Shown here in pieces: positions 24,921-51,243 of a stretch of 64,000 nucleotides of DNA. Position 1 is the first letter of the stretch. The number at the start of each line of letters is the position of its first letter. Source of the stretch: an uncultured Ruminococcus sp. (lineage in GTDB: Bacteria > Bacillota > Clostridia > Oscillospirales > CAG-272); assembly GCA_902778145.1 (NCBI GenBank), contig CACYWW010000001.1, positions 28,700 through 92,699 on the forward strand. Reading direction: 5' to 3'. The translations under genes and the position numbers were made by a program. The notes beneath the pieces were generated by a model. That model searched no databases. It saw only the letters and a list, made by a program, of their open reading frames with translations, and was not told the DNA's origin.

Positions 24921-24936
24921 TGTGCGCACATTCCTT

Positions 24937-26668: not shown

Positions 26669-26699
26669 TTGTTTTGTTTTTCTCCTTCCTTATATATTT

Positions 26700-27130: not shown

Positions 27131-27132
27131 TT

Positions 27133-29248: not shown

Positions 29249-29285
29249 CTGAGTGCCTCCATATGTGAACTTAATGTTCGTGTAT

Positions 29286-29314
29286 ATGATACCAAAAAAA
29301 ACCGTCGCTGTCAA
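29286..29314 (-). promoter_or_regulatory. SigA promoter of lexA-like gene
   Basis: TTGACA-17-TATCAT with extended TG. Confidence 0.75.
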
Positions 29315-29441
29315 CGGGTTTAGTGAAATTAAGGTGTGGAACTTTTTACCCACCTCATAGGATTTGTTCATTTTTTAGTGAGATTTCGTCTAAAAAGGGG
29401 CGTTTTGACTCCGGAAAGTTGAAAAACTTAAGAATGCTGTC

Positions 29442-30416: not shown

Positions 30417-30466
30417 ACTTCTAAACCTGTTTATCTTACGAAGTCCTTCCTTATATCTTTCTTTGT

Positions 30467-31141: not shown

Positions 31142-31177
31142 CTTCTTGCTTTTACCCTTTCTTTAAACGTTCGAATT

Positions 31178-31206
31178 ATTATACCATATTCCTTTATGAT
31201 TGTCTA
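31178..31206 (-). promoter_or_regulatory. SigA promoter for the ATL-WYL pair
   Basis: TAGACA-17-TATAAT with extended TG. Confidence 0.7.
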
Positions 31207-31288
31207 TAGGATAATTGAAAAAACAACGAAACTGTTCTCCCCACTTTTGGGATTAGGGTAACTGTTTATACAAAGAAAAGTTACAGTG

Positions 31289-32583: not shown

Positions 32584-33822
32584 TTAGTCTCTCTTAAATA
32601 AGTCTCTTGTGTAAACTTTTTCTTTTACGTTGTCAAGACAATCGTCATAGCGATTGGCAACTATGCACTGACTGAGTGTCTTAAACTTTTCAAGGTCATT
32701 TATCACCCTGCTTCCGAAGAATGTGCTCCCGTCTTCAAGTGTTGGCTCGTAGATGATGACGGTGGCTCCCTTAGCCTTTATACGCTTCATAACACCCTGG
32801 ATAGAAGATTGGCGGAAGTTATCACTATTGCTCTTCATCGTTAGGCGGTAAACGCCGATGATGATTTCTCGCTCTTTATCAGGATTATATGCTTCTGAAT
32901 TCTTATAAGCACCGGCGATTTCAAGCACACGGTCAGCAATAAAGTCCTTACGGGTACGGTTACTTTCGACGATTGCTGTCATCATATTCTGCGGGACATC
33001 GTTGTAGTTGGCAAGAAGCTGTTTTGTGTCTTTGGGTAAGCAGTAACCCCCGTAACCGAAGCTCGGATTATTGTAATGCCTACCTATACGTGGATCGAGA
33101 CCAACGCCTTCGATGATTGCTTTCGTGTCGAGTCCTTTGATCTCGGCGTAGGTGTCGAGTTCATTGAAGTAACTCACGCGGAGCGCGAGGTATGTATTTG
33201 CAAAAAGTTTGACAGCTTCAGCTTCGGTGAATCCCATGAAGAGCGTGTCAACATTTTCCTTTAGCGCGCCTTCCTGTAAAAGCCTTGCAAAAGTGTGCGC
33301 AACCGCTTTCGTTCCTTCGTCACAGCCAACTATGATTCTGCTCGGATAGAGGTTGTCGTATAGAGCCTTTGACTCACGTAAAAACTCCGGGCTGAAGATA
33401 ATCTTATCGCAGTTGTACTTCTCGCGCACAGACTTTGTGTAGCCGACAGGGATTGTTGACTTAATAACCATCGCTGCGTTTGGATTGACCTTCATGACAA
33501 GTTCAATCACCGCTTCGACCGCAGAACAATCAAAAAAGTTTTTCTGTGGATCGTAGTTTGTCGGAGCGGCAATGATGACAAATTCTGCGTCACTGTACGC
33601 AGCTTCGCCATCAAGCGTTGCGGTGAGATTCAACTTGCGAGTCCCAGCCTTGGCTTCAGCAAGATATTTTTCGATGTATTCGTCCTGAATGGGCGAGATG
33701 TAGTTGTTCAGCTTTTCAACCTTTTCAGGGATAATATCAACCGCCACAACATGATTGTGCTGAGCGAGAAGCACTGCCAGCGAAAGACCAACATAACCTG
33801 TTCCAGCTACTGCAATGTTCAT
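32584..33822 (-). CDS. ugd: UDP-glucose 6-dehydrogenase
   Basis: GTGYVG; FSPEFLRE; [10 protein letters not shown]. Confidence 0.95.
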
Positions 33823-33832
33823 GTACTATACC

Positions 33833-34930
33833 TCATACTTTGTAATATTCTTTGTACCATTCTGCAAACTTCCGCAAACCTTCTCTAATCCCGATTTTGG
33901 GAGTAAAACCGAAATCACACTCTAATGCAGAGGTGTCGGCATAGGTGGTAGGCACATCGCCGGGCTGCATAGGTACAAGTTTTTTGTGAGCATCAAAATC
34001 GAAATCAGCAGGCAAAACCTTCGCTCTCACAAGTTCTTCCTGTAAAGTATTCACGAAATCAAGTAAATTTTCCGGCTGGCCGCCTCCTATGTTATAGACT
34101 GCGTAAGGAGGTAACGGAAGACCATCCTCTCCATTCTCTCGCTTTGGCGCGCCCTGCATTACACGGATCACACCTTCAACAATGTCGTCAACATAGGTGA
34201 AATCGCGTTTGCAGTTTCCATAATTGAAGATCTGAATCGTCTCACCGCGGAGAAGCTTCTGCGTCGCAGAAAAGTAGAACATATCTGGGCGACCGGCAGG
34301 ACCGTAAACGGTAAAGAAACGCAAACCGGTCGATGGGATGTTATAAAGCTTGCTGTATGCGTGAGCAAGCAATTCGTTTGATTTCTTTGTCGCAGCATAC
34401 AGTGAGACAGGGTTGTCCACATGATCCTCTGTGCTAAATGGGACTTTCTTATTGCCGCCGTAAACAGAAGACGAGGACGCATAGACAAGATGCTCGACGC
34501 CCTTTGCACCATTATCATAAGAGTGGCGGCAAGCTTCGAGGATATTGTAGAATCCAATGATGTTCGATTCTATATACACATCTGGATGATCTATTGAGTA
34601 CCGAACACCTGCCTGCGCAGCAAGATTGACTACAATATCAAATTTGTAATTAGCAAACAAATCGTCGATTAGAGATTTGTCAGCAATAGTACCTTTATAA
34701 AACACAAACTCGCGTCCACTGTTCTTAGCACATTCATTGAGTTGCGCGAGACGATAGTCTTTCAGTGATGTATCGTAGTAGTCGTTAATATTATCCACGC
34801 CGACAATATGTGCTTTTGTATCGTCATTTAGCAGGCGATCAACCAGTTTTGCACCGATGAATCCTGCGGCACCGGTGATAAGGATTGTTTTGTTATTAAG
34901 TGAACACTTTTCTTTAGAAAACATTGTCAA
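33833..34930 (-). CDS. UDP-glucuronate 4-epimerase (CapI-like)
   Basis: TGAAGFIG; LAAQAGVRYS; YAATK; RFFTVYGPAGRPDM. Confidence 0.9.
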   Translation of the reverse strand: MTMFSKEKCSLNNKTILITGAAGFIGAKLVDRLLNDDTKAHIVGVDNINDYYDTSLKDYRLAQLNECAKNSGREFVFYKGTIADKSLIDDLFANYKFDIVVNLAAQAGVRYSIDHPDVYIESNIIGFYNILEACRHSYDNGAKGVEHLVYASSSSVYGGNKKVPFSTEDHVDNPVSLYAATKKSNELLAHAYSKLYNIPSTGLRFFTVYGPAGRPDMFYFSATQKLLRGETIQIFNYGNCKRDFTYVDDIVEGVIRVMQGAPKRENGEDGLPLPPYAVYNIGGGQPENLLDFVNTLQEELVRAKVLPADFDFDAHKKLVPMQPGDVPTTYADTSALECDFGFTPKIGIREGLRKFAEWYKEYYKV

Positions 34931-34942
34931 CCTCGAATACCA

Positions 34943-36064
34943 TTATTTGTTCGTAACCCAAGGTTCATATTTGCCGAACTCAAGGATATCCGCAATTCTC
35001 TTACACGCGTTTCCATCTCCATACGGATTGCAAGCATGTGACATTTTCTCATACGCTTCCTTGTCTTCAAGCAGTTCCTTGAAATTTCTATATATGACTT
35101 CCTCATCTGTCCCGACAAGACGCAAAGTCCCCGCTGCAACGCCCTCTGGTCTTTCTGTGGTGTCGCGCATGACAAGCACTGGTTTTCCATAGGATGGGCA
35201 CTCCTCCTGAATACCGCCGCTGTCGGTCAAGCAAAGATAGCATCTCGCCTCAAAGTTGTGACAATCGAATACTTCAATCGGCTCAATGATATGGATTTGC
35301 TTACAGTCGCCGAGTTCCTCGTCGGCTGTCTGCCGCACAACCGGGTTCATGTGAATCGGGTAGACCGCCTTACACTCAGGATGCTCATCAAGTACTCTAC
35401 GGATTGCGCGGAACATGTTGTGCATCGGCTGACCGAGGTTTTCACGGCGGTGCGCAGTGATAAAAATCAGTTTGCCATCACCAACCCAGTCAAGCTCTGG
35501 ATGCATGTAGTCCGTTCGTACAGTGTGCTGCATCGCATCTATGACGGTATTACCCGTGATGTAAATTGTAGACGAATCTTTGCCTTCGCGCAAAAGATTG
35601 TCCGCAGCAAGCTGCGTTGGGGCAAAGTTATATTTGCTAATAATGCCAACTGCTTGCCGATTGAACTCTTCGGGGTACGGACTACAAATGTTGTATGTGC
35701 GAAGTCCTGCCTCAACATGGCCCACAGGAATCTGAAGGTAAAAGCATGCGAGCGCCGTTACAAATGTTGTCGAGGTGTCGCCATGCACAAGCACAATGTC
35801 TGGATGTGCTTCCTCAATTACAGATTTAATGCGGTTTAGGATGTTCGTCGTAATGTCGAAAAGTGTCTGCTTGTCTTTCATGATGTTAAGATCATAGTCT
35901 GGGACTACATTAAATATTGATAGCACTTGATCCAACATCTGGCGATGCTGTGCAGTTACACATACGATAGTTTGTAACCCTTTTCTAGCCTTTAGTTCGT
36001 TAACCAAAGGGCACATTTTTATTGCTTCTGGTCGTGTGCCAAAAACAAGCATGATTTTTTTCAT
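34943..36064 (-). CDS. wecB: UDP-GlcNAc 2-epimerase (non-hydrolysing)
   Basis: FGTRPEAIKM; HGDT; HVEAGLR; TDSGGIQEE. Confidence 0.95.
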   Translation of the reverse strand: MKKIMLVFGTRPEAIKMCPLVNELKARKGLQTIVCVTAQHRQMLDQVLSIFNVVPDYDLNIMKDKQTLFDITTNILNRIKSVIEEAHPDIVLVHGDTSTTFVTALACFYLQIPVGHVEAGLRTYNICSPYPEEFNRQAVGIISKYNFAPTQLAADNLLREGKDSSTIYITGNTVIDAMQHTVRTDYMHPELDWVGDGKLIFITAHRRENLGQPMHNMFRAIRRVLDEHPECKAVYPIHMNPVVRQTADEELGDCKQIHIIEPIEVFDCHNFEARCYLCLTDSGGIQEECPSYGKPVLVMRDTTERPEGVAAGTLRLVGTDEEVIYRNFKELLEDKEAYEKMSHACNPYGDGNACKRIADILEFGKYEPWVTNK

Positions 36065-36133
36065 ATAAGCATCCTTTCAATCATCAAACAGAATTCTTAT
36101 GATAAGCAAACGTGGGATTTTGTGAATGGTGTT

Positions 36134-37345
36134 TTATTGATTAACTACCGTGTTTTTTCTTTTCTCGACGTAAACAAATGCAATAATAGTTCCTAATACA
36201 TACATTAACGCAGATGTATATATAATGATCTGCGTCCAGCAAACAAATAATAAAACTAGTAACATAAAAAAGACAAAAACAATTCTCGATTTATCTAACG
36301 TCTTTTTGGGAGTCTTTTTCCCCAACAATACTACATTTTTGAGGCTACTAAAAACTGGGGCAGCGAAAAGAAACGTTCCAGCCAGTCCTGTACATGCAAG
36401 CAGCTCTGTGTACGAACAATGTGAATAAGTGTTAAATGAACTATAATATCTAAAATTGTTAATACCGACTCCGAATATGGGGTTCTTACTGAAAACTGAC
36501 AACCCTTCGATTATAAGATCGTATCGCTTCTGTGTGCTTTTATCCTCAAGAATACTATCCATACGTGCTTGAGCGTACAGCAATCGATCACCATATTGTG
36601 TAGTGATATAATAAAATGCAATGAAAGCAATTAGAATCAAAGAAAGAGTAATCAGAAATGCATACAGAGGATTCGACTTATCAAAAACTCTTCGATAACA
36701 GAACAAGATGAAGACAATAATCAGTATTGCACTTGCAATCAAACACTTTTTTGACGCCGTAGATAATGCAGAAAAGAGTAGCAAAACAATAATTGCTCCG
36801 GAAAAGACCACCTTTTTTGTGCCTATTTTGTTTGACAAGAGAAGAAAGAGCACATACCCTATTGAAAACGCAAGAATTGTTCCAACAATATTAACATTAA
36901 CATCTTCACTAAAACTTATTCTATTTAAGCCGACGCCAAACATAAGCATCCAAATGGATATTATTACACCTAGTATCACAAATAACGAAGCAGAAAAATT
37001 AATAGATTCGTCAACAACCGAATACAATATAATCAAAAAAATTGCAACTACATATTCGATAATGAGTTGGGAATATGTAAAAGCTATTTTCGTATCGACT
37101 GCAAAAGCAGACATCGCTAAGGTAAGCAGTCCAAAAACAAATAATGTCATAACCTCCTTATAAATGGTAATTCTTTTTTTATAAATAAGAAATGACACTA
37201 ATGCCAAAACGATGAGGATCTGAGACATATGAGGTATAGACACAACAACATTTTTTAGAAACTGCGAATAAAGAAAATATATTGAAAAAAGTCCCTTACT
37301 AATATAATATAATGATTTCCCGTTTCTCATAAACATCCTTCTCAA
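36134..37345 (-). CDS. wzy: Wzy polymerase / O-antigen ligase family
   Basis: Polytopic membrane protein with NPIFGVG..SHCSYTELL; very AT-rich. Confidence 0.8.
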   Translation of the reverse strand: MRRMFMRNGKSLYYISKGLFSIYFLYSQFLKNVVVSIPHMSQILIVLALVSFLIYKKRITIYKEVMTLFVFGLLTLAMSAFAVDTKIAFTYSQLIIEYVVAIFLIILYSVVDESINFSASLFVILGVIISIWMLMFGVGLNRISFSEDVNVNIVGTILAFSIGYVLFLLLSNKIGTKKVVFSGAIIVLLLFSALSTASKKCLIASAILIIVFILFCYRRVFDKSNPLYAFLITLSLILIAFIAFYYITTQYGDRLLYAQARMDSILEDKSTQKRYDLIIEGLSVFSKNPIFGVGINNFRYYSSFNTYSHCSYTELLACTGLAGTFLFAAPVFSSLKNVVLLGKKTPKKTLDKSRIVFVFFMLLVLLFVCWTQIIIYTSALMYVLGTIIAFVYVEKRKNTVVNQ

Positions 37346-38448
37346 TTGCTAGCGCCAATAAACTCAGCAATCTTTCTTGCTCTATTATCCAGCGAATACT
37401 GTTCTCTACATGAGCGAATATATGTCTCCATTTCCTTGCGTTTATGCTCGTCGTTTACAAGTATCATTATGGCGTTTCGAATTCCTTCGATATCATCGTA
37501 GTCAACTCGAATCGAATTCCTTTCATTAAGGATGCAATCGTTGAACTCTCCATTAGAGGAAATAACTGGAATACCACAGCCTAAAGCTTCCACAATTGCA
37601 TTACAACACCCCTCTGCTTCGGTTGGAAGAACAAAAAAGTCTGCAGCACAAAGATACTTATTTAAAACATAATGATCGACTCTACCAATAAAAAGAATAT
37701 TATCATCTTCGGGTTTTTGTTCTCCTTCGCCAATATATATCATTTTTAAGTCTTTAATTCCATGTGCTGCTTCTTTAACCCTCATCGGTCCTTTTCGTTC
37801 TATGAAATGCCCTACAAAAACACCAATTACCTTATCAATCGGAAAACCAAGTTCTTTACGGCATTCGTTACGGTCAAGCAGTTTAAAGGAATCTATATCC
37901 AAAGCATTCGGTGCCTCCAAAACACAATCGTTCCATCTGTTTTCTCGGACTATCCTTGTGTTCTGAGATGATACGGTGATTATGCCATTCAATGCACGAA
38001 TATCACGATTCGTTTTCTCTGGATTTCTGTCCTTCATAAACCAAAGAGTACTCTCCCCAAAAGCGCAAAAAGAACGCACTCCGTGCTTTTTAGCAATTTT
38101 TGCTGCAACTATCCCTGCACACATAAAATGGGAATACAAGACGGTATTAGTATAGTCATGGATGTTTTTTTCCACAGCTTTTCTGAAGCAAATATCCTGT
38201 ATTCTATTCTGTAAAATGCGTAAGAAAGGGAAAATTTTTAAAAAAGCAAACCTGAAATATAGAGGAAATACTTCATCTTCTGATTTACACTTTCTGTTTT
38301 TAATCCAATCAGAGAATGTTAAAGGATTGATGACTTTAACATACAAGCCCTGTTTTCTCCAATTAGTCACCAATTCTTTTACGAACTGATATTTGGAGGG
38401 GTTCCCAACAATTGGATATCCGTATGTAATAACAATTATTTTTTTCAT
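37342..38448 (-). CDS. Glycosyltransferase family 4
   Basis: FVLPTEAEGCCNAIVEALGCGIPVI. Confidence 0.9.
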   Translation of the reverse strand: MKKIIVITYGYPIVGNPSKYQFVKELVTNWRKQGLYVKVINPLTFSDWIKNRKCKSEDEVFPLYFRFAFLKIFPFLRILQNRIQDICFRKAVEKNIHDYTNTVLYSHFMCAGIVAAKIAKKHGVRSFCAFGESTLWFMKDRNPEKTNRDIRALNGIITVSSQNTRIVRENRWNDCVLEAPNALDIDSFKLLDRNECRKELGFPIDKVIGVFVGHFIERKGPMRVKEAAHGIKDLKMIYIGEGEQKPEDDNILFIGRVDHYVLNKYLCAADFFVLPTEAEGCCNAIVEALGCGIPVISSNGEFNDCILNERNSIRVDYDDIEGIRNAIMILVNDEHKRKEMETYIRSCREQYSLDNRARKIAEFIGASN

Positions 38449-38484
38449 ACTGTAATCACCATTTAATCGGTCGTTAAAATGCTA

Positions 38485-40014
38485 TTATCCCTGCTTAATC
38501 TTTGCTCGTTTCAACAGGACATGTATCATTTTAATGGTATCCGCCCTTGCAAATACTAAATTGGATCCAAAAGTCACCACTGCACAAATAGCCAATGTGA
38601 CGCAACAATAACAACACCACATTCCGAAGTTGGGTGTTGAAATCCTAATTAGAATTCCTGATGTTACAAGTCCTGCATATGTAAGAAGTGAAATCGCATA
38701 CCTTTTAATTTGTAAAGCGATATTGATATATAGTACTTCTTTATTAAGAAATCTGACAAATGAAATCGTTCTGTAAACCATAGCAGCGAGTGTACCTATT
38801 GCCACACCAAGAAGACCAAGCCATCCAACAAATATTACCGAAACAACAATGTTAATACCGGCTTCGACTGCCGCTGAAATTTTGGTTTCTTTGAATTTTC
38901 CTGCTGCGTATATTACATTATTATAGGGAAGCCTAATACAATAAATATACTCAGCCGCAACAATAACGATACCAAATGAATACTGAATATAATTGGCATC
39001 AGTTATATTCTTAACGTAAACATCTATAAAATTGAAAATCGTAATGCTTGCCGTTGCAAATATTACCGTACAAAAAATGTGCATAAACGTATTGTACAAC
39101 TGAAAAGCAGACTGTAGATTCTTTTTTTCTCCAAGGGCAATAATATTTCCAAGCGCAGATGTTACTGCCCTTCCTATCGCTGTAACAAACGAAGAGAGAC
39201 CTACCAGCACCATACTGTAAACCGAATACACGGAAACCAAGCCCAAGGTAATCTTTTCAGTGAATCTTGAAAAGAGTGTTAAAACAAACACATCTGTCTT
39301 CGTATGAATAAAGTAGGCAATTGCTTGTGTAAACCCATCCCAACGCTGTTTAATCAGCGAGTTATCGATCTCATAATGCTTGCTGAGATTGTATTTCCTT
39401 TTAGAATACAGACTCAATAATAAAGGACGAAGAACAAAGAGCACCGCACTCCCCAATTTAACGATTTGAATAGAGCACCCAGCATGGATGAGAAAAACAG
39501 AAACAATTGTATTAATAATTACTGTGACAATTTGAACAATTGAATATACATAAGACCGCTGATCGGCCTCTAGTAGCATCTGGTGTGTAATGCCAAAGAA
39601 ATATTGGGCTGCAGTGCTAACACCGATGATTAATACAAGTGATGCCGTATAGAAAAAATCGCCAAACTGAGTTGCAATAATTGTCGGAAAAAACACCGCA
39701 AGAACGACTATATATACAACCGAAATAACGGCAATTCTGCGAAAAAAACTTTCAACTGTTTTGACTATTATACACAGTTTGTCATGATCCTTATCTGCTA
39801 AGGGCTTGTATAGCGCTGCTTTTGCTACAGTACCAACACCAGACTGAAGAAGCGTTATATATCCAATAAAGCTTGTTATCGATGAAATCAGACCATTTAC
39901 TTCTGACCCATAAATACGGATTATCAGTCTAGGTAAAATAAGGCCAGATATCATCGTTATAATCTCGAGCAATATGGAAAATGCAGAATTAATCAACGCT
40001 TTCTTTTTTCTCAT
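38485..40014 (-). CDS. wzx: Wzx flippase
   Basis: Multi-TM MOP-like protein within the polysaccharide locus. Confidence 0.85.
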   Translation of the reverse strand: MRKKKALINSAFSILLEIITMISGLILPRLIIRIYGSEVNGLISSITSFIGYITLLQSGVGTVAKAALYKPLADKDHDKLCIIVKTVESFFRRIAVISVVYIVVLAVFFPTIIATQFGDFFYTASLVLIIGVSTAAQYFFGITHQMLLEADQRSYVYSIVQIVTVIINTIVSVFLIHAGCSIQIVKLGSAVLFVLRPLLLSLYSKRKYNLSKHYEIDNSLIKQRWDGFTQAIAYFIHTKTDVFVLTLFSRFTEKITLGLVSVYSVYSMVLVGLSSFVTAIGRAVTSALGNIIALGEKKNLQSAFQLYNTFMHIFCTVIFATASITIFNFIDVYVKNITDANYIQYSFGIVIVAAEYIYCIRLPYNNVIYAAGKFKETKISAAVEAGINIVVSVIFVGWLGLLGVAIGTLAAMVYRTISFVRFLNKEVLYINIALQIKRYAISLLTYAGLVTSGILIRISTPNFGMWCCYCCVTLAICAVVTFGSNLVFARADTIKMIHVLLKRAKIKQG

Positions 40015-40046
40015 TTATTCTAATAATCCCCTCTTTATGAACAAAT

Positions 40047-41150: not shown

Positions 41151-41171
41151 TCAAGCTTCCAACCGATAGCG

Positions 41172-42392
41172 TCAAATGTGATAAACTCCTGGTATCTTGC
41201 AGATATTATGGCAGTCAAGAATCACCTTTCCTACAAGTTTTCCCATGTTTTCTTTGATTTCGTTGTGCTTGACCATAATCACGACGAAATCGACATCGTT
41301 AAGGAACTTGTCCAAATCGTGATATTGATTCGACACGACTTCTTTTTCAATAAACGGATCGTAGACCTTTAACCCATTTGCAAGATGACGCTCCTGGCTC
41401 TCCAACAACTGCAGCGTAGGAGACTCTCGCATATCATCGACATTTTCTTTATAAGTAAGTCCGTACAGTCCGACACGCGTAATATCAGTCATGCCCTTTT
41501 CTTTCATAATCTCGTAGATACGGTTGAGCACGAAATCGGGCATGCCGTCATTGGTTTTCATCGACTCGTCAATAACCTTTGCAAGCGACGGATAATCACC
41601 GACAAGGAACCAAGGATCAACAGAAATACAGTGCCCGCCCACTCCGGGACCTGGCTGAAGGATATTTACACGTGGGTGCATATTGCAGATCTTGATGATC
41701 TCATACACATCCATATTATCGTGCCGGCAAATCTTAGCAAGTTCGTTAGCAAACGCGATATTCACAGCGCGGAAAGTGTTCTCAACAACCTTCGTCATCT
41801 CTGCGGTCTTGATGTCGGTAACAATGATCTCTCCCTGACAGAAGGAAGCATAGAGATTCTTCACTTTCTCTCCGATTTCCTTGTCATCGGCGCCAATCGT
41901 GCGATTGTTGTGCAGAAGTTCGTACACCATATTGCCTGGAATGATGCGCTCCGGTGCGTGAACAAGATTGATGTCCTCACCGATCTTGAAGCCGTTAGCT
42001 TCAATCACAGGGCGCACGAATTTCTCAATCGTACCGGGAGAAACGGTCGATTCAATAACAACAGTCGCACCTTTCGGGCATACTTTCATCACATCTTTGA
42101 CAGCAGCGACGACGTAGCAAGCGTCAACCTTTTTGCTGAACTTGTCATATGGCGTGGGTACGGAAACAATGTAGGTGTCCGTCACCTGATATTCGTCCGT
42201 GAACTTGATGCCAGCTTTAACAGCTTCTGTAAACAACTCGTCCAGACCTTTTTCTTTGAATGTGGTTTTGCCAGCGTTTAATGTAGCTACTAGTTCCCTA
42301 TTGTAGTCTGTTCCTATGACCTCCACTCCATGGGATGCCATCATAAGAGCAGTAGGCAAACCTATGTAACCCAGCCCAATAACGTTAATCAT
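41172..42392 (-). CDS. wecC: UDP-ManNAc dehydrogenase (WecC/CapO-like)
   Basis: GLGYIGLPT; PERIIPG; GVGGHCISVDP. Confidence 0.9.
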   Translation of the reverse strand: MINVIGLGYIGLPTALMMASHGVEVIGTDYNRELVATLNAGKTTFKEKGLDELFTEAVKAGIKFTDEYQVTDTYIVSVPTPYDKFSKKVDACYVVAAVKDVMKVCPKGATVVIESTVSPGTIEKFVRPVIEANGFKIGEDINLVHAPERIIPGNMVYELLHNNRTIGADDKEIGEKVKNLYASFCQGEIIVTDIKTAEMTKVVENTFRAVNIAFANELAKICRHDNMDVYEIIKICNMHPRVNILQPGPGVGGHCISVDPWFLVGDYPSLAKVIDESMKTNDGMPDFVLNRIYEIMKEKGMTDITRVGLYGLTYKENVDDMRESPTLQLLESQERHLANGLKVYDPFIEKEVVSNQYHDLDKFLNDVDFVVIMVKHNEIKENMGKLVGKVILDCHNICKIPGVYHI

Positions 42393-43482
42393 TCTTCAAA
42401 CCCTCCATATAATCAGTAAGCCGCTTCTGAAATAAAGCTTTGCTTTTTTCAATTTCATTATCGATAAAATTGGCGCAAATACTTTGTGCCCTCTCAAGAT
42501 TGTATTGTTGATACCATTCATATAGTTTTTCCAAGTCGTGTTTTATTCCTTCGCTCCCATGAATAGTATATCCTATTCCACATTGACAGGCGATATCGTC
42601 AGTGCAGGTTCCTGCATAGGTCAATATGGGTATTCCAAGGAAAATGGCATAATAAAGCTTAATAGAAAGAGCTGAGTCGAGATGAATATTTCCATAACCA
42701 TACAAATTGTATAGAATATCAGCCTCTTTTAAATATTCTGCCGTTTTCTCTTGTGGAAACTTACCGCGGACTCGTATATTGTTGTAATTTCTTTCTTTAG
42801 CATATTCTTCAACCTTTTCTGAACCTATTCCATAGAATAGCAATTCAAATCGTGAATCATTGCCCAATATATCAAGAAACTGAAATGTATTCTCTAACCA
42901 ACCGATTTGGCCAATATACTCTATTCTGATAGGGCGATTAATTGCCTTTGACTTTGGTTTTTCAAGCTGTGAAAGAATAGAATCATTCATGCTATGAAGG
43001 AAAATATACTCATGTTTCGGAAGATAATCAATAAATCTTTTCGAAGAAACTGTAGCAAACGCACATTTTTTAATAGTTTTTTTTAACTCTGAACGTACAA
43101 AAGGTTTATCAAGGTAAAAATAATCACGAATGTTAATTGTATATTTCCCAGAAAAGAAACGCCTTAGCATACCTCCATAAATAAAGGTTGTAACCTCATT
43201 CCAAACAACGATAAGATCATATTTGCCATTATCGAGAATAGAGCGTATCTTTTTTCGTTGCTTATAGAACAAGAATGATTTTTTTAAGCTACTTCCCTCA
43301 GAACCACATTCTATCCGAATAGGGATAAGATGTGAATCGTATGGAGGCTCATATTCGTGAAACTTATCATAAAAAATAATATCATAGTCAATTCCGTGTT
43401 TTCTGAAGTAATCAGTATAAGCAGATGTCATTGACAACCTCGAACGGTCTACAATCGTCAAAATACACGCTTTCATATTCAA
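42385..43482 (-). CDS. Putative glycosyltransferase
   Basis: GT-B-like C-terminus (ADILYNLYG..KLYYAIFLGIPIL); locus context. Confidence 0.7.
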   Translation of the reverse strand: MNMKACILTIVDRSRLSMTSAYTDYFRKHGIDYDIIFYDKFHEYEPPYDSHLIPIRIECGSEGSSLKKSFLFYKQRKKIRSILDNGKYDLIVVWNEVTTFIYGGMLRRFFSGKYTINIRDYFYLDKPFVRSELKKTIKKCAFATVSSKRFIDYLPKHEYIFLHSMNDSILSQLEKPKSKAINRPIRIEYIGQIGWLENTFQFLDILGNDSRFELLFYGIGSEKVEEYAKERNYNNIRVRGKFPQEKTAEYLKEADILYNLYGYGNIHLDSALSIKLYYAIFLGIPILTYAGTCTDDIACQCGIGYTIHGSEGIKHDLEKLYEWYQQYNLERAQSICANFIDNEIEKSKALFQKRLTDYMEGLKND

Positions 43483-43505
43483 ACTCCTATAAATCAGAAT
43501 TGAAA

Positions 43506-44360
43506 CTACAGTTTATAATGTGGATATAGACTCTTGTGTTCCATAATCCAATCTGATAATTCTGCAACCATTTTTTCATAATTGGGTATTTTGTAACTAA
43601 AATCCCATCTAGTTCGTTTTAATGACTTATCTGCAGCCATTCTATCAACTGGAATAATTGACACTTTTTCCCTTCTAATGTACCGATTGAATAATCCTAA
43701 CAAATCACACTTGGAAATACTGGAATCCGGCACCATATTAAACAGACCATGTGCCCTTTCTTTTGCAGCTGCTTCCATTGTTTTGGCAAGTTGGAGAGTT
43801 GTCTGCCCAGTCCACATTGCTCCAGTAAAACCATTTACTTCGCCGTGTTGCTGCAAGAACCAATTAAGAAGTCCAATTCCTTTGGGATTTATATCAGGTC
43901 CCACTATTGACTGTCGCAAAGTGAGATCCTTTTCATTGATTATTTCCCCCAAAGCCTTTGTACGATCATAGAATGTTGAGCCATCTTTAAAATCATCTTC
44001 AGTGTATTGGCCTTTTTTCCCGCTAAACACACAGTCAGTACTCATATGAATTATCTGAGTATGCGTGCCTTCTGTAAGTAGTGCTAACTGATGCGGAAAA
44101 AAAGAATTAAGATAAACAGCAGTTGATTTATGTTCCTCGCATGTCTGGTTTAGAAGTCCAATACAGTTGATTACTGAATCAAACTTATCAACCCCGATAA
44201 GTTCTTTCATAAATTCGGCATCCTGCGCATCACCGGCTACAGAATCAACAAGGTTTGATAGTTGTCTATCAAAGCCTATCACGTTATGACCTTGCTCTTT
44301 TAAGTAAAGGCTAATCATATGTCCGGCCATACCGTTGCAACCGAGAATTAAAAACTTCAT
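43506..44360 (-). CDS. RmlD-like NDP-sugar 4-reductase
   Basis: GCNGMAG; HMSTDCVFSG; YDRTK. Confidence 0.85.
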   Translation of the reverse strand: MKFLILGCNGMAGHMISLYLKEQGHNVIGFDRQLSNLVDSVAGDAQDAEFMKELIGVDKFDSVINCIGLLNQTCEEHKSTAVYLNSFFPHQLALLTEGTHTQIIHMSTDCVFSGKKGQYTEDDFKDGSTFYDRTKALGEIINEKDLTLRQSIVGPDINPKGIGLLNWFLQQHGEVNGFTGAMWTGQTTLQLAKTMEAAAKERAHGLFNMVPDSSISKCDLLGLFNRYIRREKVSIIPVDRMAADKSLKRTRWDFSYKIPNYEKMVAELSDWIMEHKSLYPHYKL

Positions 44361-45397
44361 TTCTCTTCCTTTCTCAACTCATCCTGAACATATCGAGTTG
44401 TCATAATTTTTTGAACCGTTCCATCCACATCCAGTTGATTGGTGTTGCTACTGGTGTATTCAAAATCGGCTTGCGATTTAACATTCCCATTAACGAGGAA
44501 CTTGTCATAATTTAAATCGCGGCTGTCAGCACTTATCCGATAGTACTGTCCCATATCCTCAGACCTGAGCATTTCTTCTCTGGTAACAAGAGTCTCATAA
44601 AGCTTTTCGCCATGGCGCGGACCAATAATACGGGTCTCGGTTTTTCCAAAAACCTTCTGAACAGCTTCAGCCAGAACGCCTATCGTGCTTGCATCCGCTT
44701 TCTGCACAAACAAATCGCCAGGGTTTGCATGCTGGAAAGCGAACATAACCAAGGCTACTGCTTCATCAAGGTTCATAAGGAAGCGGGTCATATTGGGATC
44801 AGTGATAGTAATTGGTCTTCCACTCTTTATCTGCTGAATGAAAAGAGGTATAACGGAGCCTCTACTACACATAACATTCCCATATCTCGTACAGGTCAGG
44901 GTAGTTCCATGATCTGCTGCATATTTAGCCTTCGAGTAAACCACTCTCTCAGCCATAGCCTTACTAATACCCATAGCGTTGATTGGATAAGCTGCCTTAT
45001 CTGTGGAAAGAAGGACTACAGACTTAACATGATTGTCTACTGCTGTCTGGACAACATTATCTGTACCAACCACGTTAGTTCTAACAGCCTCCATCGGGAA
45101 GAATTCGCAAGAAGGGACTTCTTTAAGAGCCGCTGCATGGAATACATAATCCACGCCTTGCATAGCGATATTGAGCGAATCACGATCCCGAACATTGCCG
45201 ATATAGAATTTTACCTTGTCATATGCTTCAGGATAATTGGCCTGAAGCTCATGGCGCATATCGTCCTGCTTCTTTTCGTCTCTTGAAAAGATACGGATTT
45301 CTGCAATATCCGAACTCAAAAAATGGTTTAACACAGTATTTCCGAAAGAGCCTGTACCACCAGTGATCATCAACACTTTATCTTTAAAAACGCTCAT
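44357..45397 (-). CDS. UDP-GlcNAc 4,6-dehydratase/5-epimerase (FnlA/CapE/WbjB)
   Basis: TGGTGSFG; FSRDEKKQDDMR; LSTDKAAYPINAMG; RYGNVMCSRGSV. Confidence 0.92.
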   Translation of the reverse strand: MSVFKDKVLMITGGTGSFGNTVLNHFLSSDIAEIRIFSRDEKKQDDMRHELQANYPEAYDKVKFYIGNVRDRDSLNIAMQGVDYVFHAAALKEVPSCEFFPMEAVRTNVVGTDNVVQTAVDNHVKSVVLLSTDKAAYPINAMGISKAMAERVVYSKAKYAADHGTTLTCTRYGNVMCSRGSVIPLFIQQIKSGRPITITDPNMTRFLMNLDEAVALVMFAFQHANPGDLFVQKADASTIGVLAEAVQKVFGKTETRIIGPRHGEKLYETLVTREEMLRSEDMGQYYRISADSRDLNYDKFLVNGNVKSQADFEYTSSNTNQLDVDGTVQKIMTTRYVQDELRKEEK

Positions 45398-46596
45398 CTT
45401 TTATAATTCCATCCCTTCTGGAGTTGTTCAAGCATGTCGAGCAGCCTGCTGTTGTTTTTTTCCTTTGAGTAAACTCTGTTCGTGAACTCAATCACATCTT
45501 TCTGATAATCCTTCAAGCAACTCTTATCTTTTGAGATCTCATTGATAATAGGAACTGCATCCAGGATTTCATCTTGAGAGAATGAATATCCGATATGATT
45601 ATCCTTGAAAAGCTGATAATATCCTGACTTCTCAACAATATTCATCACAGGCTTGCCAACTGCCATGGCAAGCGCCATCTTGCTCGGTACGTTGTTGCCA
45701 ATAACACCGTGATGCAGAGGAATAATCTCCATATCGCAGTAGCTGTACACTTCGCTCATGCGCTCCTGTGGCTGCCAGCCATAGAATTTGATGTTTGAGC
45801 CTTGTGTTCTTCTCTTCAGTTCTTCTATCTTGACTCCCTGACCGACAATGTGGAATTCAACATGCTTGTTGTCTTTCAGGGCATTAACAAGCTCTACAAA
45901 CTCATCAAGCCCAAATACTTGTCCGACATTCCCCGCGTATTGAATGATCAGCTTTGAAGTATCAATATCAAATTCCTTGACGAAAGTATTATCCTCTGGA
46001 GCTATATACCGGATACTATCCGAGTCATACCATGTGTTCACAATGAAGATCTTGTTCGGGTCTGTTTTCTCCCTAATTAAGACATCCCTCATGTCATCGG
46101 AAACAACCACAACACGATCTGCCAGCTTAAAACCAATTCGCTGTATGCGCTTTAGAATCTTGTCCAGGAATTTGTTCTTCACAATTCCAAGCTCAAAAGC
46201 AGAACCGGGGAATACATCGTGGATGTTGTAAACGATGGGCTTTCCAAGTCTTTTAAGTCTACGGATTGTAAAGGATACGGTCGGTACAGATTGAACGAAA
46301 AATAAGTCAACGTCCAAGTCCTTTGCAAGCTTCGTAGCTCCTCTAACAAAACTAAGTCCGTACAGATATCTACCTATGAAATTTGTTTTCTGGGTAGGTT
46401 TTAGTTCTACGGTATGGCACTTGAAATTCGGCTTTTCTAGTTGCGGGGGATAATCCGCATTATCCCGAACGGAGACAGCCTCAATCAAATCGACCGAATG
46501 CCCACGTTCCAGCATCTTCTCTATAGTCGCACATAGCAAATGGTTAGACCCATTATTACTTGCGAACCCATTTTCATAAACGAAACCTATCTTCAT
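45394..46596 (-). CDS. Glycosyltransferase family 4 (WbuB/CapL-like)
   Basis: NIHDVFP; YAGNVGQVFG; VPSKMALAMAVGKPV. Confidence 0.85.
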   Translation of the reverse strand: MKIGFVYENGFASNNGSNHLLCATIEKMLERGHSVDLIEAVSVRDNADYPPQLEKPNFKCHTVELKPTQKTNFIGRYLYGLSFVRGATKLAKDLDVDLFFVQSVPTVSFTIRRLKRLGKPIVYNIHDVFPGSAFELGIVKNKFLDKILKRIQRIGFKLADRVVVVSDDMRDVLIREKTDPNKIFIVNTWYDSDSIRYIAPEDNTFVKEFDIDTSKLIIQYAGNVGQVFGLDEFVELVNALKDNKHVEFHIVGQGVKIEELKRRTQGSNIKFYGWQPQERMSEVYSYCDMEIIPLHHGVIGNNVPSKMALAMAVGKPVMNIVEKSGYYQLFKDNHIGYSFSQDEILDAVPIINEISKDKSCLKDYQKDVIEFTNRVYSKEKNNSRLLDMLEQLQKGWNYKR

Positions 46597-47528
46597 TTAT
46601 TATTCCCCTTCGTGGACATATATTGTTTAACTTCTTCCACGATACCTTCTTTGAATGTCATTGGATTGTAACCAAATGCTTCAGCTGCCTCTTCATGTGT
46701 GAATACTCTCGGTTCGCAGAGACGCTGCACTTTTTCTCTATAGTCAACCTTTTTCAAACTCAGGAGATAAATCAGCCATGCGCCGCCATAAGCTATGGGG
46801 AATGGGCAACTAATGAACTTAACCTTCTTGCCAAGATTCTTTCCAATTTCGGTAAGCATGTCCCGAAGCAGGATAGGTTCTCCGCCAGAAAGGTTAAAAT
46901 CTCTGTTGGCGGTCGCATTCTCGTTCATAAGCACTGCAAAATATGCATCACCTAAATCCCTGTAGTGAACCGGCTGAAGCTCATATTTAGCGCCGTTGAC
47001 CACAGGCATGATAGGGAATTTATCAACCATCTTTACAAACTGAATAACATTGTTGTCGTAGATGTTTCCATAAATCATTGTTGGACGGCAGATGGTCAGG
47101 ACAATTCCGTTCTTTTTGCAAGTGTCATAAACAAAGGCATCAATCTGACGATACTCTTCGCCAGCTTCCTTGTACTTTGAGTAAATTCCTGTGGTATGAA
47201 TCAGAATGAGCCTCCGAACCTTGCAAAAGGCAGCCGCCTCAACGACTTCGTGCGACCAATGTATTCCCGCAAGGTGTAAAACCGTATCGGCATTCCTAAA
47301 GGCGTCTTTCAGAAAACTTACGTCAGTAAGCTCTCCTCTGCATATTTCAATTCCCGGAATATTTTTTTTTAAATAGGATGTATTAGATGTCTCCCTTGCA
47401 ATTGCTCTTATTCCATCTGGAAAGAGTTCTTTCACATCACTTATATGTTTTGCTATATTCTCAGCCAATACGCCACCGGACTTTTTGCCTGTCACACCTG
47501 TCAGCGCAAGGATTTTTCCCATTTTCAA
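46593..47528 (-). CDS. NAD-dependent epimerase/dehydratase
   Basis: Rossmann-like N-terminus; RPTMIYG; LQPVHYRDL. Confidence 0.8.
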   Translation of the reverse strand: MKMGKILALTGVTGKKSGGVLAENIAKHISDVKELFPDGIRAIARETSNTSYLKKNIPGIEICRGELTDVSFLKDAFRNADTVLHLAGIHWSHEVVEAAAFCKVRRLILIHTTGIYSKYKEAGEEYRQIDAFVYDTCKKNGIVLTICRPTMIYGNIYDNNVIQFVKMVDKFPIMPVVNGAKYELQPVHYRDLGDAYFAVLMNENATANRDFNLSGGEPILLRDMLTEIGKNLGKKVKFISCPFPIAYGGAWLIYLLSLKKVDYREKVQRLCEPRVFTHEEAAEAFGYNPMTFKEGIVEEVKQYMSTKGNNK

Positions 47529-47532
47529 TTCC

Positions 47533-48162
47533 TCATTTTTGTTGATAGTTGTGAGAGGACGCTATTTGCTCTTTATTCCCTGTTCCGCCTTCAACAACGC
47601 CATCATGTTTCAAAACACTCTTTATTGTTCCAAAGAAACACTTGCAGTCAAAGAGAAAACTCTGTTTCTCAACATACTCCCCGTCTAATTTGGCCTTAAT
47701 GGGAATCTCAAGTTCATCGCGCCCATTTATTTGAGCCCAGCCAGTGAGACCGGGTTTGATATCGTTTGCACCGTATTTATCGCGCTCAGCAACGAGGTCA
47801 TATTGGTTCCACAAAGCAGGGCGAGGCCCAATCACGCTCATCTGTCCGGCAGCGATATTAAACAGTTGGGGTAGCTCGTCCAGGCTTGCCCTACGTTCCA
47901 GCCTCTGCCATTTGGTAAGCATATCCTCCGCCTTAAACTGATGTGTCGGCGTGTCGTGCGGCACATTAACAGGCATTGATCGAAATTTGATAATCATGAA
48001 CTCTTTTTTATGTATGCCGATTCTGCGCTGTTTGAAAAACACCGGACCGGGAGAGTCGATCTTGATGATGATCGCAATGATCAGCATAGGAATTGCAAGG
48101 ACGATAATTCCTAAGATGGATAGCACAAGATCAAGCAGTCGTTTGATAAAATGCCTGTACAT
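47533..48162 (-). CDS. Priming phosphoglycosyl transferase (PglC/CapM-like), intact
   Basis: KRLLD..GPVFFKQ.R.G..KFRSM..SLDELPQLFN..GPRP..KPGLTGWAQING. Confidence 0.93.
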   Translation of the reverse strand: MYRHFIKRLLDLVLSILGIIVLAIPMLIIAIIIKIDSPGPVFFKQRRIGIHKKEFMIIKFRSMPVNVPHDTPTHQFKAEDMLTKWQRLERRASLDELPQLFNIAAGQMSVIGPRPALWNQYDLVAERDKYGANDIKPGLTGWAQINGRDELEIPIKAKLDGEYVEKQSFLFDCKCFFGTIKSVLKHDGVVEGGTGNKEQIASSHNYQQK

Positions 48163-48165
48163 TAA

Positions 48166-48786
48166 TTAGCCCTCAACATTCCCATCAGTAGTGATTTCAA
48201 TGCGTTCTCCCACAAATACTGTCTCGCCATTATGAGTTCCGAGTGTAAAACTATATCCATATTTTCGCACAACTTCGTTTGGCTCTGTCTTTGTGAATGA
48301 CGGAACCGCTGCGCTGGGCATTACAACCGTGCCGCATTGAATATTGCAATAATCTGCGACAAAAGAGTGGTGATCGATTACCGAATTTGCCATCACAAAG
48401 GTTCCTTCCCCAACGTGAGCACGAGGATTAACTGCTGCCAACGGAGCGACGACGACTCCTCTTCCTAACTGAGCCGTATTGCTGAGATATGCGCGCTTTG
48501 ATACGATTCCTGGAACGTTGTAGTTGACGTACATGAGTTTCTTAGTCCACTCCATACGCACATCCGGATCGCCTATTGCAACGATTGCATATTTGTAGTC
48601 CATTATAAACTTTTCATAGTCCTCAAGTTTACCGATAGACTGCTCGTGAAAATTGCCTTCAAATTCCCCGCTGCCAAACGTGTCATCAAGGAAATCGATC
48701 TTCCCGAACGCTCCCATTTCTTCTGCAATCTCTTTGACTACAGTGCCGAACATTCCGGCACCAAGGATCAGTAAGTTATTGTTCAT
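48166..48786 (-). CDS. PglD/NeuD-like sugar acetyltransferase
   Basis: LILGAG..FLDD..IVAIG; hexapeptide repeats; RBS AGGAG before MNNNLL. Confidence 0.8.
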   Translation of the reverse strand: MNNNLLILGAGMFGTVVKEIAEEMGAFGKIDFLDDTFGSGEFEGNFHEQSIGKLEDYEKFIMDYKYAIVAIGDPDVRMEWTKKLMYVNYNVPGIVSKRAYLSNTAQLGRGVVVAPLAAVNPRAHVGEGTFVMANSVIDHHSFVADYCNIQCGTVVMPSAAVPSFTKTEPNEVVRKYGYSFTLGTHNGETVFVGERIEITTDGNVEG

Positions 48787-48809
48787 TGCAAATCTCCTAT
48801 CTGTTGTTT

Positions 48810-49046
48810 TCAGAATAAGCTGACGGCTTCTTCGCCGATCCAAGATATGTCGTTAACTCTCTTGTTCTCTTCCAATTCGATAACAATGTGATCCGCCTTA
48901 GCTGTTATCTTTGAAATCAAATAATACTTATCGAACTCTGTGTTCGCCATTTCTGTTCCGTTTTCGAATTGAAGGTGTCGTCCTTCCAACAGCACTTCTA
49001 TCGGAGAACAAATGTTGCTGACTGATTGATCAATTCTGTACGCCAA
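48810..49046 (-). CDS. Small hypothetical protein (TTG start, ~78 aa)
   Basis: GGAGG precedes TTG at 49046; first gene of the cargo operon. Confidence 0.55.
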   Translation of the reverse strand: MAYRIDQSVSNICSPIEVLLEGRHLQFENGTEMANTEFDKYYLISKITAKADHIVIELEENKRVNDISWIGEEAVSLF

Positions 49047-49133
49047 TTTATATCCTCCATTCTCTTGCCTGAAGTGTTTTTTCTTTTGATTAAGACTCTT
49101 AAAAAATTTCACAAAGAATATTATAATTTTATA

Positions 49134-49162
49134 TTGACCATCTTCGTGTTATTTGGTATAAT
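49134..49162 (+). promoter_or_regulatory. Near-consensus SigA promoter facing the element end
   Basis: TTGACC-17-TATAAT with extended TG. Confidence 0.7.
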
Positions 49163-49167
49163 ATAGT

Positions 49168-49330
49168 ATGGTGGGCAGAATAGCGCCATATCATCCAGAA
49201 TGTTTTTTTATAAAATGTTGGCTTAAACCTTTTATGGCCTCAGCCAGCACTTTATTCTGCCGAAAGTTATTCATTGGAAGTTAGAATCCTTCTCTAAAAG
49301 CGATACCGGTTCACAGTCGGTATTCTTTTT
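49168..49330 (+). ncRNA. Candidate small RNA (or leaderless 38-aa ORF 49168-49284)
   Basis: Promoter upstream, nested stems, and terminator GATACCGG-7nt-TCGGTATT-CTTTTT at 49302-49330. Confidence 0.45.
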
Positions 49331-49364
49331 GAGGACTCTTATTCAGGCTTAAAAACATTTAAGC

Positions 49365-49727
49365 TCAAATAGCAGTTCTCAAAAATCCTTGTAAATACTG
49401 TGGTTTAAGTGTTGTCCCTATTATTACTCGCGCTAGGCTGGTTTTTCTCATTATCCTGCCGATCTTCGTGACTCGGGGATCGTTCGGTCCGTTATACGTG
49501 GATCCGTCCGCATTTCTGATATCGGGCGCGTTGACCTTCATGGAGCGGAATTTGTACATCTTGAACGTCTTGCCGTTTTTGCCGAGTCTCTGAGCGCTGT
49601 AAAAGACGGGGCCCCTGTCGGTCAGGTAAATGATCGGAGCAAGGACAATGAAAAACAAGCAAAAGAACGGCAGCCCGATCAGCCCAAAGACGATATCGAT
49701 CGACCTTTTAACAAATTTCCTGTACAT
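49365..49727 (-). pseudogene. Resident priming sugar transferase truncated by insertion
   Basis: 98 aa of PglC-like sequence ends at RKTSL. The expected DELPQ...GPRP...PG.TG half is replaced by 22 unrelated residues. Confidence 0.88.
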
Positions 49728-51052: not shown

Positions 51053-51217
51053 TCAATTCTCCGATACAAGCATTTACAACTCAGACCGTGCCGCTTTGTC
51101 AGGCGGCGTCCGGGAGATCCGTTTACGGCAGCAGAATTCAAATGCATATATTTTTACTTAGGATATCATATTAAAAGATGTTTTTCAAGCGCAATATGTT
51201 AATAAAGTATGCGAGAT

Positions 51218-51243
51218 AAAAAAAGTGCCCCCTTGAGGGGCGC
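51218..51243 (-). terminator. Intrinsic terminator
   Basis: GCGCCCC-TCAAG-GGGGCAC followed by T7. Confidence 0.7.

Follow-up and report, generated by a model that had tools for sequence, protein, structure and literature searches.

An integrative and conjugative element inserted before the catalytic codons of a phosphoglycosyl transferase gene, with a putative replacement glycan cassette as cargo

Why would the gene of a glycan-priming enzyme stop just before its catalytic codons, and why would an intact homolog stand at the head of a polysaccharide locus a short way inside the interrupting sequence? The question was raised by a stretch of 64,000 nucleotides from an uncultured Ruminococcus sp. 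(the window), which corresponds to C1:28700-92699, that is, to most of a 102.5-kb contig (C1) in a metagenome-assembled genome (MAG; G000) of 84 contigs and 2.42 Mb, 88 % complete and with a GC content of 0.54. Plain coordinates refer here to the window and those preceded by C1 to the contig; recombinase loci, genomes and public sequencing runs bear the prefixes L, G and X, respectively. With a probability of roughly 80 %, the region is the left attachment end (attL) of a 77.74-kb integrative and conjugative element (ICE), integrated by a large serine recombinase (LSR) into the host gene for a phosphoglycosyl transferase (PGT) and carrying a replacement glycan cassette.

The open reading frame (ORF) at 49365-49727 (minus strand) encoded a PglC-type PGT up to ..GRIMRKTSL (AAA ACC AGC CTA G), then continued as CGCGAGTAATAATAGGGACAACACTTAAACC.. 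and stopped after 22 codons. Families were assigned throughout by Pfam profile searches of ORF translations, and the Bac_transf match of this frame covered only profile positions 1-88 of 179 (E 6e-26), homology ending just before the Asp-Glu (DE) dyad. In the PglC literature, the DE of SLDELPQ is the catalytic dyad of monotopic PGTs. The host part of the frame (49437..49727, minus strand) comprised 98 codons ending in ..RKTSL, the Leu codon using the core CT described below. The other half of the gene was located at C1:75-398, left of the window, on the same strand and 77.7 kb from the 5' half; it read ..LDETPQILNVLKGDMSFVGPR.. through a normal stop, displayed LDETPQ near its start and matched Bac_transf positions 87-179 at C1:114-398. 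When each half was aligned to the intact PGT of the element, the 5' half finished with Ser-Leu (residues 93-94) and the 3' half began with Leu-Asp-Glu, so that they joined at Leu/Asp (the slash marks a junction here and below) with no codon lost. A profile search of all 84 contigs returned three Bac_transf matches only, namely the intact gene and the two halves; a full-length host PGT was thus present only as two separated pieces.

Both junctions displayed the organization of serine integrase attachment sites. In gene orientation, attL read ..ACCAGC CT AGCGCG.. and the right site (attR) ..TTAGCA CT GGACGAA... At attL (49410..49436), the core CT occupied 49435-49436 (read on the minus strand), with the P' arm at 49410-49434 and an inverted repeat at 49410-49420; at attR, the core CT lay at C1:394-395 and the P arm at C1:396-420. 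Across the 84 contigs, the 11-mer TAGGGACAACA occurred without mismatch exactly twice, once per junction and in inverted orientation, at a distance of 14 nt from the shared CT in both cases. This arm layout is the one expected for a serine integrase attP of about 52 bp. The shared central dinucleotide, the inverted-repeat arms and the absence of target duplication or loss indicate that the ICE was inserted by conservative site-specific recombination at the Leu codon just before the Asp-Glu motif. The cores were 77,740 bp apart, and everything between C1:396 and C1:78135 was considered a single element. A preliminary description, made from the letters of the window, had proposed a PGT normal up to ..RKTSL and then replaced by unrelated sequence, an insertion at the catalytic codons bringing a replacement locus on an ICE, and a missing 3' half beside a recombinase gene at the far end. 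The truncated frame, the halves abutting at Leu/Asp, the arms unique to the junctions and the recombinase gene described next agreed with it on all these points; its breakpoint at about 49433 was corrected to 49435-49436.

The recombinase gene closest to attR, 1 kb inside it, encoded an LSR of 791 residues (LSR791; C1:1324-3699). It displayed a Resolvase domain (PF00239, E 9.9e-26, residues 50-191) with the serine motif ..VYCRVSTDGISQ.. (RVS) and a Recombinase domain (PF07508, E 8e-16). The zinc ribbon PF13408 was undetected in LSR791 and detected in two other LSRs of the element, and the 450-residue C-terminal part had no Pfam family. In the PDB, the catalytic domain of LSR791 matched 3g13, annotated as a putative conjugative transposon recombinase (E 2e-23), as well as TnpX (2mhc). 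Its adjacency to attR and its co-variation with arms and target designate it as the putative integrase for these sites. Between LSR791 and the P arm stood a metallophosphoesterase gene and, immediately adjoining the arm, a strong terminal hairpin accompanied by a U7 run (dG -23.9 kcal/mol, z -4.3). The genes p271 and p132 (C1:3709-4885) stood directly upstream of the terminal LSR and accompanied it in 13 and 11 of 14 genome loci, respectively; p271 displayed a weak similarity (about 24 % over 149 residues) to a C-terminal stretch of Spirochaete LSRs, and both proteins are candidates for accessory or directionality factors. Altogether this single ICE harbored five LSR genes (C1:8422-14721 and C1:1324-3699), among them one of 488 codons in which the Recombinase domain was present and the Resolvase catalytic domain absent.

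Inside attL, the element opened with a leader of about 600 bp (48810..49409, minus strand), composed of some 300 bp of non-coding DNA and an ORF of 100 residues without Pfam family. The first gene of the cargo head encoded a PglD-like acetyltransferase (48166..48843, minus strand; PglD_N and hexapeptide domains) and was followed by the intact PglC-type PGT of the element (47533..48162, minus strand), the homolog that the preliminary description had placed there. This protein of 209 residues covered Bac_transf positions 1-179 (E 1e-56), displayed SLDELPQ at residues 93-99, and matched the PglC chain 8e37 (E 7e-35) with SLDELPQLF identical in the alignment. Its gene was the only full-length Bac_transf gene of the assembly, and in it the 11 nt AGCCTGGACGA at the centre of the inferred target were retained between differing flanking arms.

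Thirteen co-oriented genes on the minus strand (32584..47528) constituted the variable glycan cargo. In the order of transcription they encoded an NAD-epimerase-like protein (46593-47528), a GT4 glycosyltransferase (45394-46596), a Polysacc_synt_2 dehydratase (44357-45397), an RmlD-like reductase (43506-44360), a weakly matching GT1 (42385-43482, E 0.0027), a UDP-sugar dehydrogenase (41172-42392), a pyruvyl transferase (40047-41150), a Wzx-like protein (38485-40014), a second GT1 (37342-38448), Wzy (36134-37345), a UDP-GlcNAc 2-epimerase (34943-36064), an epimerase/dehydratase (33833-34930) and another UDP-sugar dehydrogenase (32584-33822). PGT, GT4, GT1s, Wzy and a candidate flippase therefore lay in one co-oriented cluster. 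Of the Wzx/Wzy pair announced in the preliminary description, the polymerase was supported by Pfam (Wzy_C); the flippase remained a candidate with no Pfam match, its Atlas model reaching TM values of 0.88-0.95 to clusters that carry Polysacc_synt/MurJ. The cargo appeared foreign by composition, since its GC content was 0.34-0.47 versus 0.54 for the genome. The same locus standing in relatives apart from the ICE would have contradicted the preliminary description; none of 150 genomes from the family contained it as a whole, their matches being limited to single sugar-nucleotide genes of 64-80 % identity. Pfam detected no Wzz, LytR_cpsA_psr (LCP) or DegT gene in the glycan locus of the element. 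The host harbored one Wzz and two LCP genes on contigs C24, C37 and C40; as these were the only copies, the cassette looks dependent on host functions.

Recurrence of the junction with other polysaccharide cargo, also foreseen in the preliminary description, was encountered in another genome and in a public metagenome. Contig C13 of genome G061 displayed a host Wzz gene, a kinase-like gene, a PglF-like dehydratase gene, a DegT gene and PGT profile positions 1-88, interrupted at the same codon (..STSL/AGAIIGT.., arm ..GATAATAGGGACAAG). Past the break, the acetyltransferase (69 % amino acid identity) and the PGT (89-90 %) were conserved and were followed by a different 25-kb glycan locus (C13:1846-27095), with two GT4, LicD, NeuB, a NeuC-like 2-epimerase, a cytidylyltransferase (CMP-transferase), a MurJ-like flippase and others. 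This cargo combines nonulosonic acid genes (NeuB, 2-epimerase, cytidylyltransferase) with LicD. After it came an IS21-type insertion and then WYL and LexA-like genes homologous to window positions 28595-30416.

The junction stretch was present in 20 listed public runs from 14 studies, four of which were compared as assembled contigs. Contigs of X10, a biogas-fermenter metagenome from another study, were identical to the window over 48595-49294 and 49334-49436 (0 differences over 700 and 103 nt), and past 49436 continued into a different PGT 5' half (..KIGKLLRKTS-L). Taken together, the junctions of the window, G061 and X10 show one and the same codon occupied by the element end in no fewer than three distinct host PGT alleles. 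Run X2, which shares its study with the possible source, contained a contig bridging 49407-49811; a loose end at 49459 in X2 was considered as an empty site and rejected, being a different PGT allele (..RLDE..). An X6 contig of 1296 nt whose match ended at 49435 and an X5 contig with 195 unlike letters past 49442 were not counted. A conserved acetyltransferase-PGT head, a variable cassette body and a recurrence across hosts accordingly characterized these insertions.

Searches with the LSR recovered loci from species genomes (14), metagenomes (20) and viral contigs (three). Ten loci were at least 70 % identical to LSR791; six of these were cut inside the LSR gene, L017 and L034 represented the same contig, and four distinct relatives with a visible flank could be compared. 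The hairpin and the P arm downstream of the LSR were kept in all four. The attR flank of L017 (LSR 74 % identical; from genome G061) read LDELPELFNIFVG and passed into HisF-like sequence, and that of L033 (74 %) read MDEISQLL.. before a stop. L031 (94 %) was flanked by GPRPALWNQ.., a PGT tail 85 % identical to the element's own PGT in the window, and L032 (81 %) by a DegT aminotransferase gene entered at HL/FG. The tail of L031 (L031:13352-13620) started 17 codons past the usual site and resembled the element PGT, not the host PGT; insertion of one family element into the PGT gene of another may account for it, as may a deletion subsequent to integration. Including the window, the attR flanks were glycan-pathway genes in five out of five visible cases, three of which started at Asp-Glu codons. 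In view of the flanks of L017, L033, L031 and L032, insertion does not always occur at the L/DE codon, and many excisions would leave no restored gene; with an incomplete PGT remnant past attR in three of the four close relatives, reversibility by excision is not general. At E<=1e-100 the LSR was encountered in none of 400 other genomes of the host's order. None of the three LSR loci from viral contigs had a visible junction, and one of them was the same contig as metagenome locus L042. A scan of viral contigs for the P' arm pattern gave ten matches, which were rejected as chance occurrences in unrelated coding sequence with no PGT nearby.

LSRs about 55 % identical, accompanied by p271 and p132, were found in Spirochaete genomes and metagenomes, with thirteen loci displaying a visible flank. 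In three of them (L021, L023 and L036), the P arm (..GACGCGGACGGTT) gave way to DegT sequence at F/NGNK or F/HAVKN; in the other ten it gave way to AGTCGTTTTGAAGAAT.., that is, to the P' arm. Because P arm adjoins P' arm, these ten loci carry attP itself, as circles or tandem copies. The corresponding attL sites were recognized on G067:C19, G068:C87 and G069:C34, where the 5' half of a host DegT gene (Pfam positions about 4-175) ended in ..ALS before the P' arm. All three types of site in this clade (attP, and attL and attR from three integrated copies) shared the core TT, and the insertion site in DegT adjoined the motif of the pyridoxal phosphate (PLP) lysine. The G067 element measured about 58 kb, with three further LSR genes about 14 kb from the terminal LSR, and at E<=1e-5 it contained no homologs of the conjugation genes of the window's element. 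Its attL cargo (G067:C19:45000-61286) was co-oriented with the broken host DegT and included genes for phosphoenolpyruvate mutase, a thiamine pyrophosphate-dependent decarboxylase and an iron-containing alcohol dehydrogenase (phosphonate), an intact DegT, a PGT, a GT2, a pyruvyl transferase, a GT1 and a Polysacc_synt flippase. From element to element, the chemistry of the cargo varied widely. The DegT homolog of the G068 element, likewise intact, began about 290 bp inside attL. Each of the five integrated copies examined, from the two clades together (window, G061:C13, G067:C19, G068:C87 and G069:C34), displayed 0.3-5 kb inside attL a co-oriented and intact homolog of the gene it had broken; for G069:C34 the homolog found was a PGT at about 2.7 kb.

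Two further loci deserve mention. In L019, the attP of the terminal LSR was intact within a 501-kb chromosomal contig, as if the element had integrated via another site. L040, a metagenome contig of 10,970 nt, displayed the LSR, attP, the P' leader, about 6.6 kb of cargo and backbone that in G067 lies near the LSR side; such an order is what a small element of the Spirochaete clade would show if it were circular or repeated in tandem. LSR clade C (48-52 % identity; L024-L028, L041 and L049), with co-oriented genes after the LSR and no recognizable junction, was set aside, as were the partial loci L030, L052 and L053 (25-62 %).

Directly upstream of the split PGT stood an intact host gene for a DegT/DnrJ/EryC1 aminotransferase (49727..51052, minus strand; PF01041, E 1.5e-75), whose GC content of 0.54 equals that of the genome. 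Just upstream of it, the consensus scan recognized the probable start of the host glycan operon (51160..51241, minus strand), with a terminator-like hairpin at 51227-51241 and a sigma-70-like promoter at 51160-51188, both of them pattern matches. The same scan revealed no promoter-like or terminator-like site on the minus strand between the host PGT fragment and the cargo. At the opposite end, the host locus runs off the contig after C1:1.

In the mechanism proposed, the terminal LSR would recombine the attP of about 52 bp with the conserved ..SL/DE.. coding sequence. The truncated host PGT would be dead because its Asp-Glu motif is lost, the downstream serotype-specific genes of the host would be cut off from their promoter, and the terminal hairpin with its U-run would insulate the host 3' half and the genes behind it. 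Simultaneously, the element's cassette would come to lie directly behind the host operon promoter and the host precursor genes (DegT here; Wzz, kinase, PglF-like dehydratase and DegT in G061). Since a promoter-like site precedes DegT and none was found on the minus strand in between, the cassette would be read from the host operon, and the cell would make the glycan of the element with the chain-length (Wzz) and attachment (LCP) functions of the host. The cassette may also use the host aminotransferase just upstream, its own set including a PglD-like acetyltransferase and no DegT. With both halves intact, and with serine recombination leaving the number of bases unchanged, excision would rebuild the host PGT in the present case. 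Extended to both clades, the p271-p132-LSR end module, with extra LSR genes nearby, might define cross-phylum glycan cassette exchangers, which would home to catalytic-motif codons in conserved early genes of glycan operons (PGT SL/DE, DegT PLP-lysine or HL/FG) and carry at attL, promoter-less and co-oriented, an intact copy of the broken gene ahead of a variable cassette. A single recombination would then disconnect the resident serotype genes and put a new set under the promoter, precursor genes and export machinery of the host. This generalization is tentative and is given slightly less than an even chance; the presence of more than one recombinase may allow an element to use any of these target genes that a recipient offers.

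The preliminary description had also announced an ICE backbone directly after the glycan locus, and the conjugation genes recognized by Pfam further left confirmed it. The element extended 28.3 kb beyond the left edge of the window (C1:396-28699), a part that harbored genes for a NikA-like protein, a relaxase (PF03432, E 3.5e-35), ArdC, a type IV coupling protein (T4SS-DNA_transf, E 3e-61), a VirB4-like ATPase (TraG P-loop/AAA_10) and a CHAP hydrolase, four LSR genes, AbiJ, AAA_25, p271, p132 and LSR791. By gene content, it thus combined a relaxase, a coupling protein, a VirB4-type ATPase and LSRs between two att sites. The order of the recombinase region (LSR553..LSR586..LSR537..XRE..AAA_25-p271-p132-LSR791) was kept in L031 and L017, which argues for one element rather than an island beside an ICE. 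A nested arrangement of a small element plus an ICE was ruled out in view of this synteny and of the repeat, which occurred only at the outer ends.

Within the window, a block of accessory genes and regulators (28607..32497) was followed by two backbone blocks (16705..27597 and 1..15877), all on the minus strand. The first contained genes for a TIR-domain protein of 402 residues (31289-32497), a neighbouring 224-residue ORF without Pfam family (30467-31141), a WYL protein (29442-30416) and a LexA/S24-like repressor (28607-29371), the last two being backbone genes with G061 homologs of 65 % and 59 % amino acid identity, respectively. These four genes are likely defence or regulatory cargo. Near the recombinase end, an AbiJ N-terminal-domain protein was encoded at C1:6755-7888. 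The second block encoded KorA-like (27133-27597), ParA (25841-26668), ParB (24937-25887) and SpoVG (24536-24931) proteins and a pilus region (17188-24077) with an A24 prepilin peptidase (22488-23132), CpaB/RcpC (21482-22330), a T2SSE ATPase (19416-20759) and DUF4320 (17188-17697). This Flp/Tad-like pilus set accompanied, in a Firmicute-type ICE, a separate set of VirB4, coupling protein and relaxase. The third block was composed of a gene for a 988-residue protein (12911-15877), an ORF of 2954 residues with ArdC-N, MutS_I, Eco57I-type methylase and SNF2/ResIII helicase domains (1386-10250), genes for DUF3848 proteins (609-1365) and a DUF3991/Toprim protein running off the window (2-598). To the right of the host glycan operon (51860-64000), large ORFs without Pfam family (924, 468, 693, 383, 392 and 286 residues) were accompanied by genes for a single ABC ATPase and for a protein weakly matching the Listeria-Bacteroides repeat, in DNA with a GC content of up to 0.60.

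Other explanations can be put forward for the same arrangement. An ordinary ICE insertion with incidental cargo, in which the conserved motif served as landing site only and neither promoter capture nor replacement was involved, would agree with the frequent use of conserved intragenic sites by LSRs (PMC10083194, as far as the consulted part of that article goes), with the unrelated TIR and AbiJ genes aboard and with close relatives inserted in DegT or at another PGT position. It was nevertheless judged unlikely, as it leaves aside the co-oriented intact homolog inside attL in all five examined integrated copies of two LSR clades, the constancy of the acetyltransferase-PGT head while the remaining cargo differs, and the glycan-pathway nature of every visible target. 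The two host halves are both open and have lost no codon, they jointly span the full Pfam profile, all examined ORFs of the ICE and its cargo are intact, and the identical element end on a different PGT allele in X10 argues for recent movement. These observations make it quite improbable that the insertion is an old, immobile relic whose locus has become the host's own and whose PGT halves are decaying pseudogenes, even if the lack of circular or empty-site forms, the truncated PGT remnants beside L017, L033 and L031 and the rarity of the LSR in the order would suit such a relic. A misjoining of a host glycan locus to an ICE at the conserved PGT motif was also considered, conserved motifs being able to seed chimeric joins in a metagenome bin of 84 contigs; it is highly improbable in view of both junctions lying on one contig with mirror-image arms unique in the genome, and of the same join having been assembled independently in G061, in X10 and, albeit within the study of the possible source, in X2.

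Several observations weigh against an ICE that replaces the host glycan pathway through its PGT gene. PGT-like sequence past attR extended over only 13-15 codons in L017 and L033 and started only at GPRP in L031, and L032 adjoined a DegT gene and not a PGT. In G061, the attL core was TT and the attR core, on another contig, was CT, so these ends may not belong to one insertion. Neither attB (the empty site) nor attP (the circle) of the window's clade was seen in related genomes or run contigs. Empty-site strains, envisaged in the preliminary description, did not turn up among 60 related genomes, in which neither an attB allele nor any near match to the host DegT and PGT 5' half was found (best DNA match, 65 % over 915 nt). 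The element harbors four other LSR genes beside LSR791, which was assigned by adjacency and co-variation; the Wzx call is based on Atlas look-alikes, the promoter and terminator calls come from simple consensus pattern scans, and the MAG is incomplete. The ICE integrated in the host PGT nevertheless remained the preferred interpretation, in which glycan replacement, promoter capture and reversibility would be the consequences of the insertion.

Intragenic elements of serine integrases, conserved intragenic LSR sites and ICEs carrying capsular polysaccharide (CPS) loci are already known. Serotype-converting temperate phages alter the surface glycan of their host on integration by adding enzymes that modify the resident O-antigen; unlike the present element, they neither break the priming transferase nor bring a full replacement pathway. 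TndX of Tn5397 and TnpX of Tn4451 exemplify clostridial conjugative or mobilizable transposons driven by LSRs. They share with the present element the integration of transferable DNA by serine recombinases, as also indicated by the matches of LSR791 to 3g13 and to TnpX; the present element differs in target and cargo, in its five LSR genes and in its conserved p271-p132-LSR end module. In Bacillus subtilis, spsM serves spore polysaccharide synthesis. SPbeta lies within this gene and its precise excision restores the reading frame (PMC5499854, consulted in part); with its serine integrase SprA and directionality factor SprB, it likewise represents an LSR element inside a polysaccharide synthesis gene. 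SPbeta is however a phage, brings no substitute gene or glycan locus and is excised during development, whereas the window's element displays a conjugative gene set, an intact copy of the broken gene and a Wzx/Wzy cassette, and its excision is only inferred. ICEs of gut Bacteroidetes carry whole CPS loci, and CPS was enriched only in mobile elements of Bacteroidetes and not in those of Firmicutes (PMC6907783). Those conjugative elements resemble the present one in their cargo, and the consulted part of that article did not describe integration into glycan genes; in contrast, the elements described here were encountered in a Clostridia-type MAG and in Spirochaetes, and they enter a conserved gene of the pathway itself. 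Diverse LSRs home to one conserved coding site according to Durrant et al. 2022 (PMC10083194), and the targets named in the part consulted include a Mg-chelatase-like gene, a prolyl isomerase and competence genes. The word transferase does not occur in the main text of that article, whose supplementary target tables may list Bac_transf or DegT. In the literature searched, no description was found of integration into PGT or DegT genes together with replacement glycan cargo. Elements that land in the conserved genes of a glycan pathway and carry an intact copy heading a variable glycan cassette therefore appear to be new.

Surface glycans decide phage sensitivity, immune recognition and colonization, and in many genomes no part varies more than the loci that encode them. 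Homologous recombination within a species, between conserved flanking regions, is the usual explanation for the exchange of such loci. If the interpretation given here is correct, whole serotypes would be moved between unrelated hosts in one conjugation event, and the presence of a copy of the destroyed gene at the start of the cargo would be explained. The finding can be put to the test, since both integrated junctions (attL and attR) have been seen in nature for one clade, and for a second clade attP as well. The serine integrases concerned have natural landing sites in very widespread bacterial genes and could help DNA delivery to non-model anaerobes.

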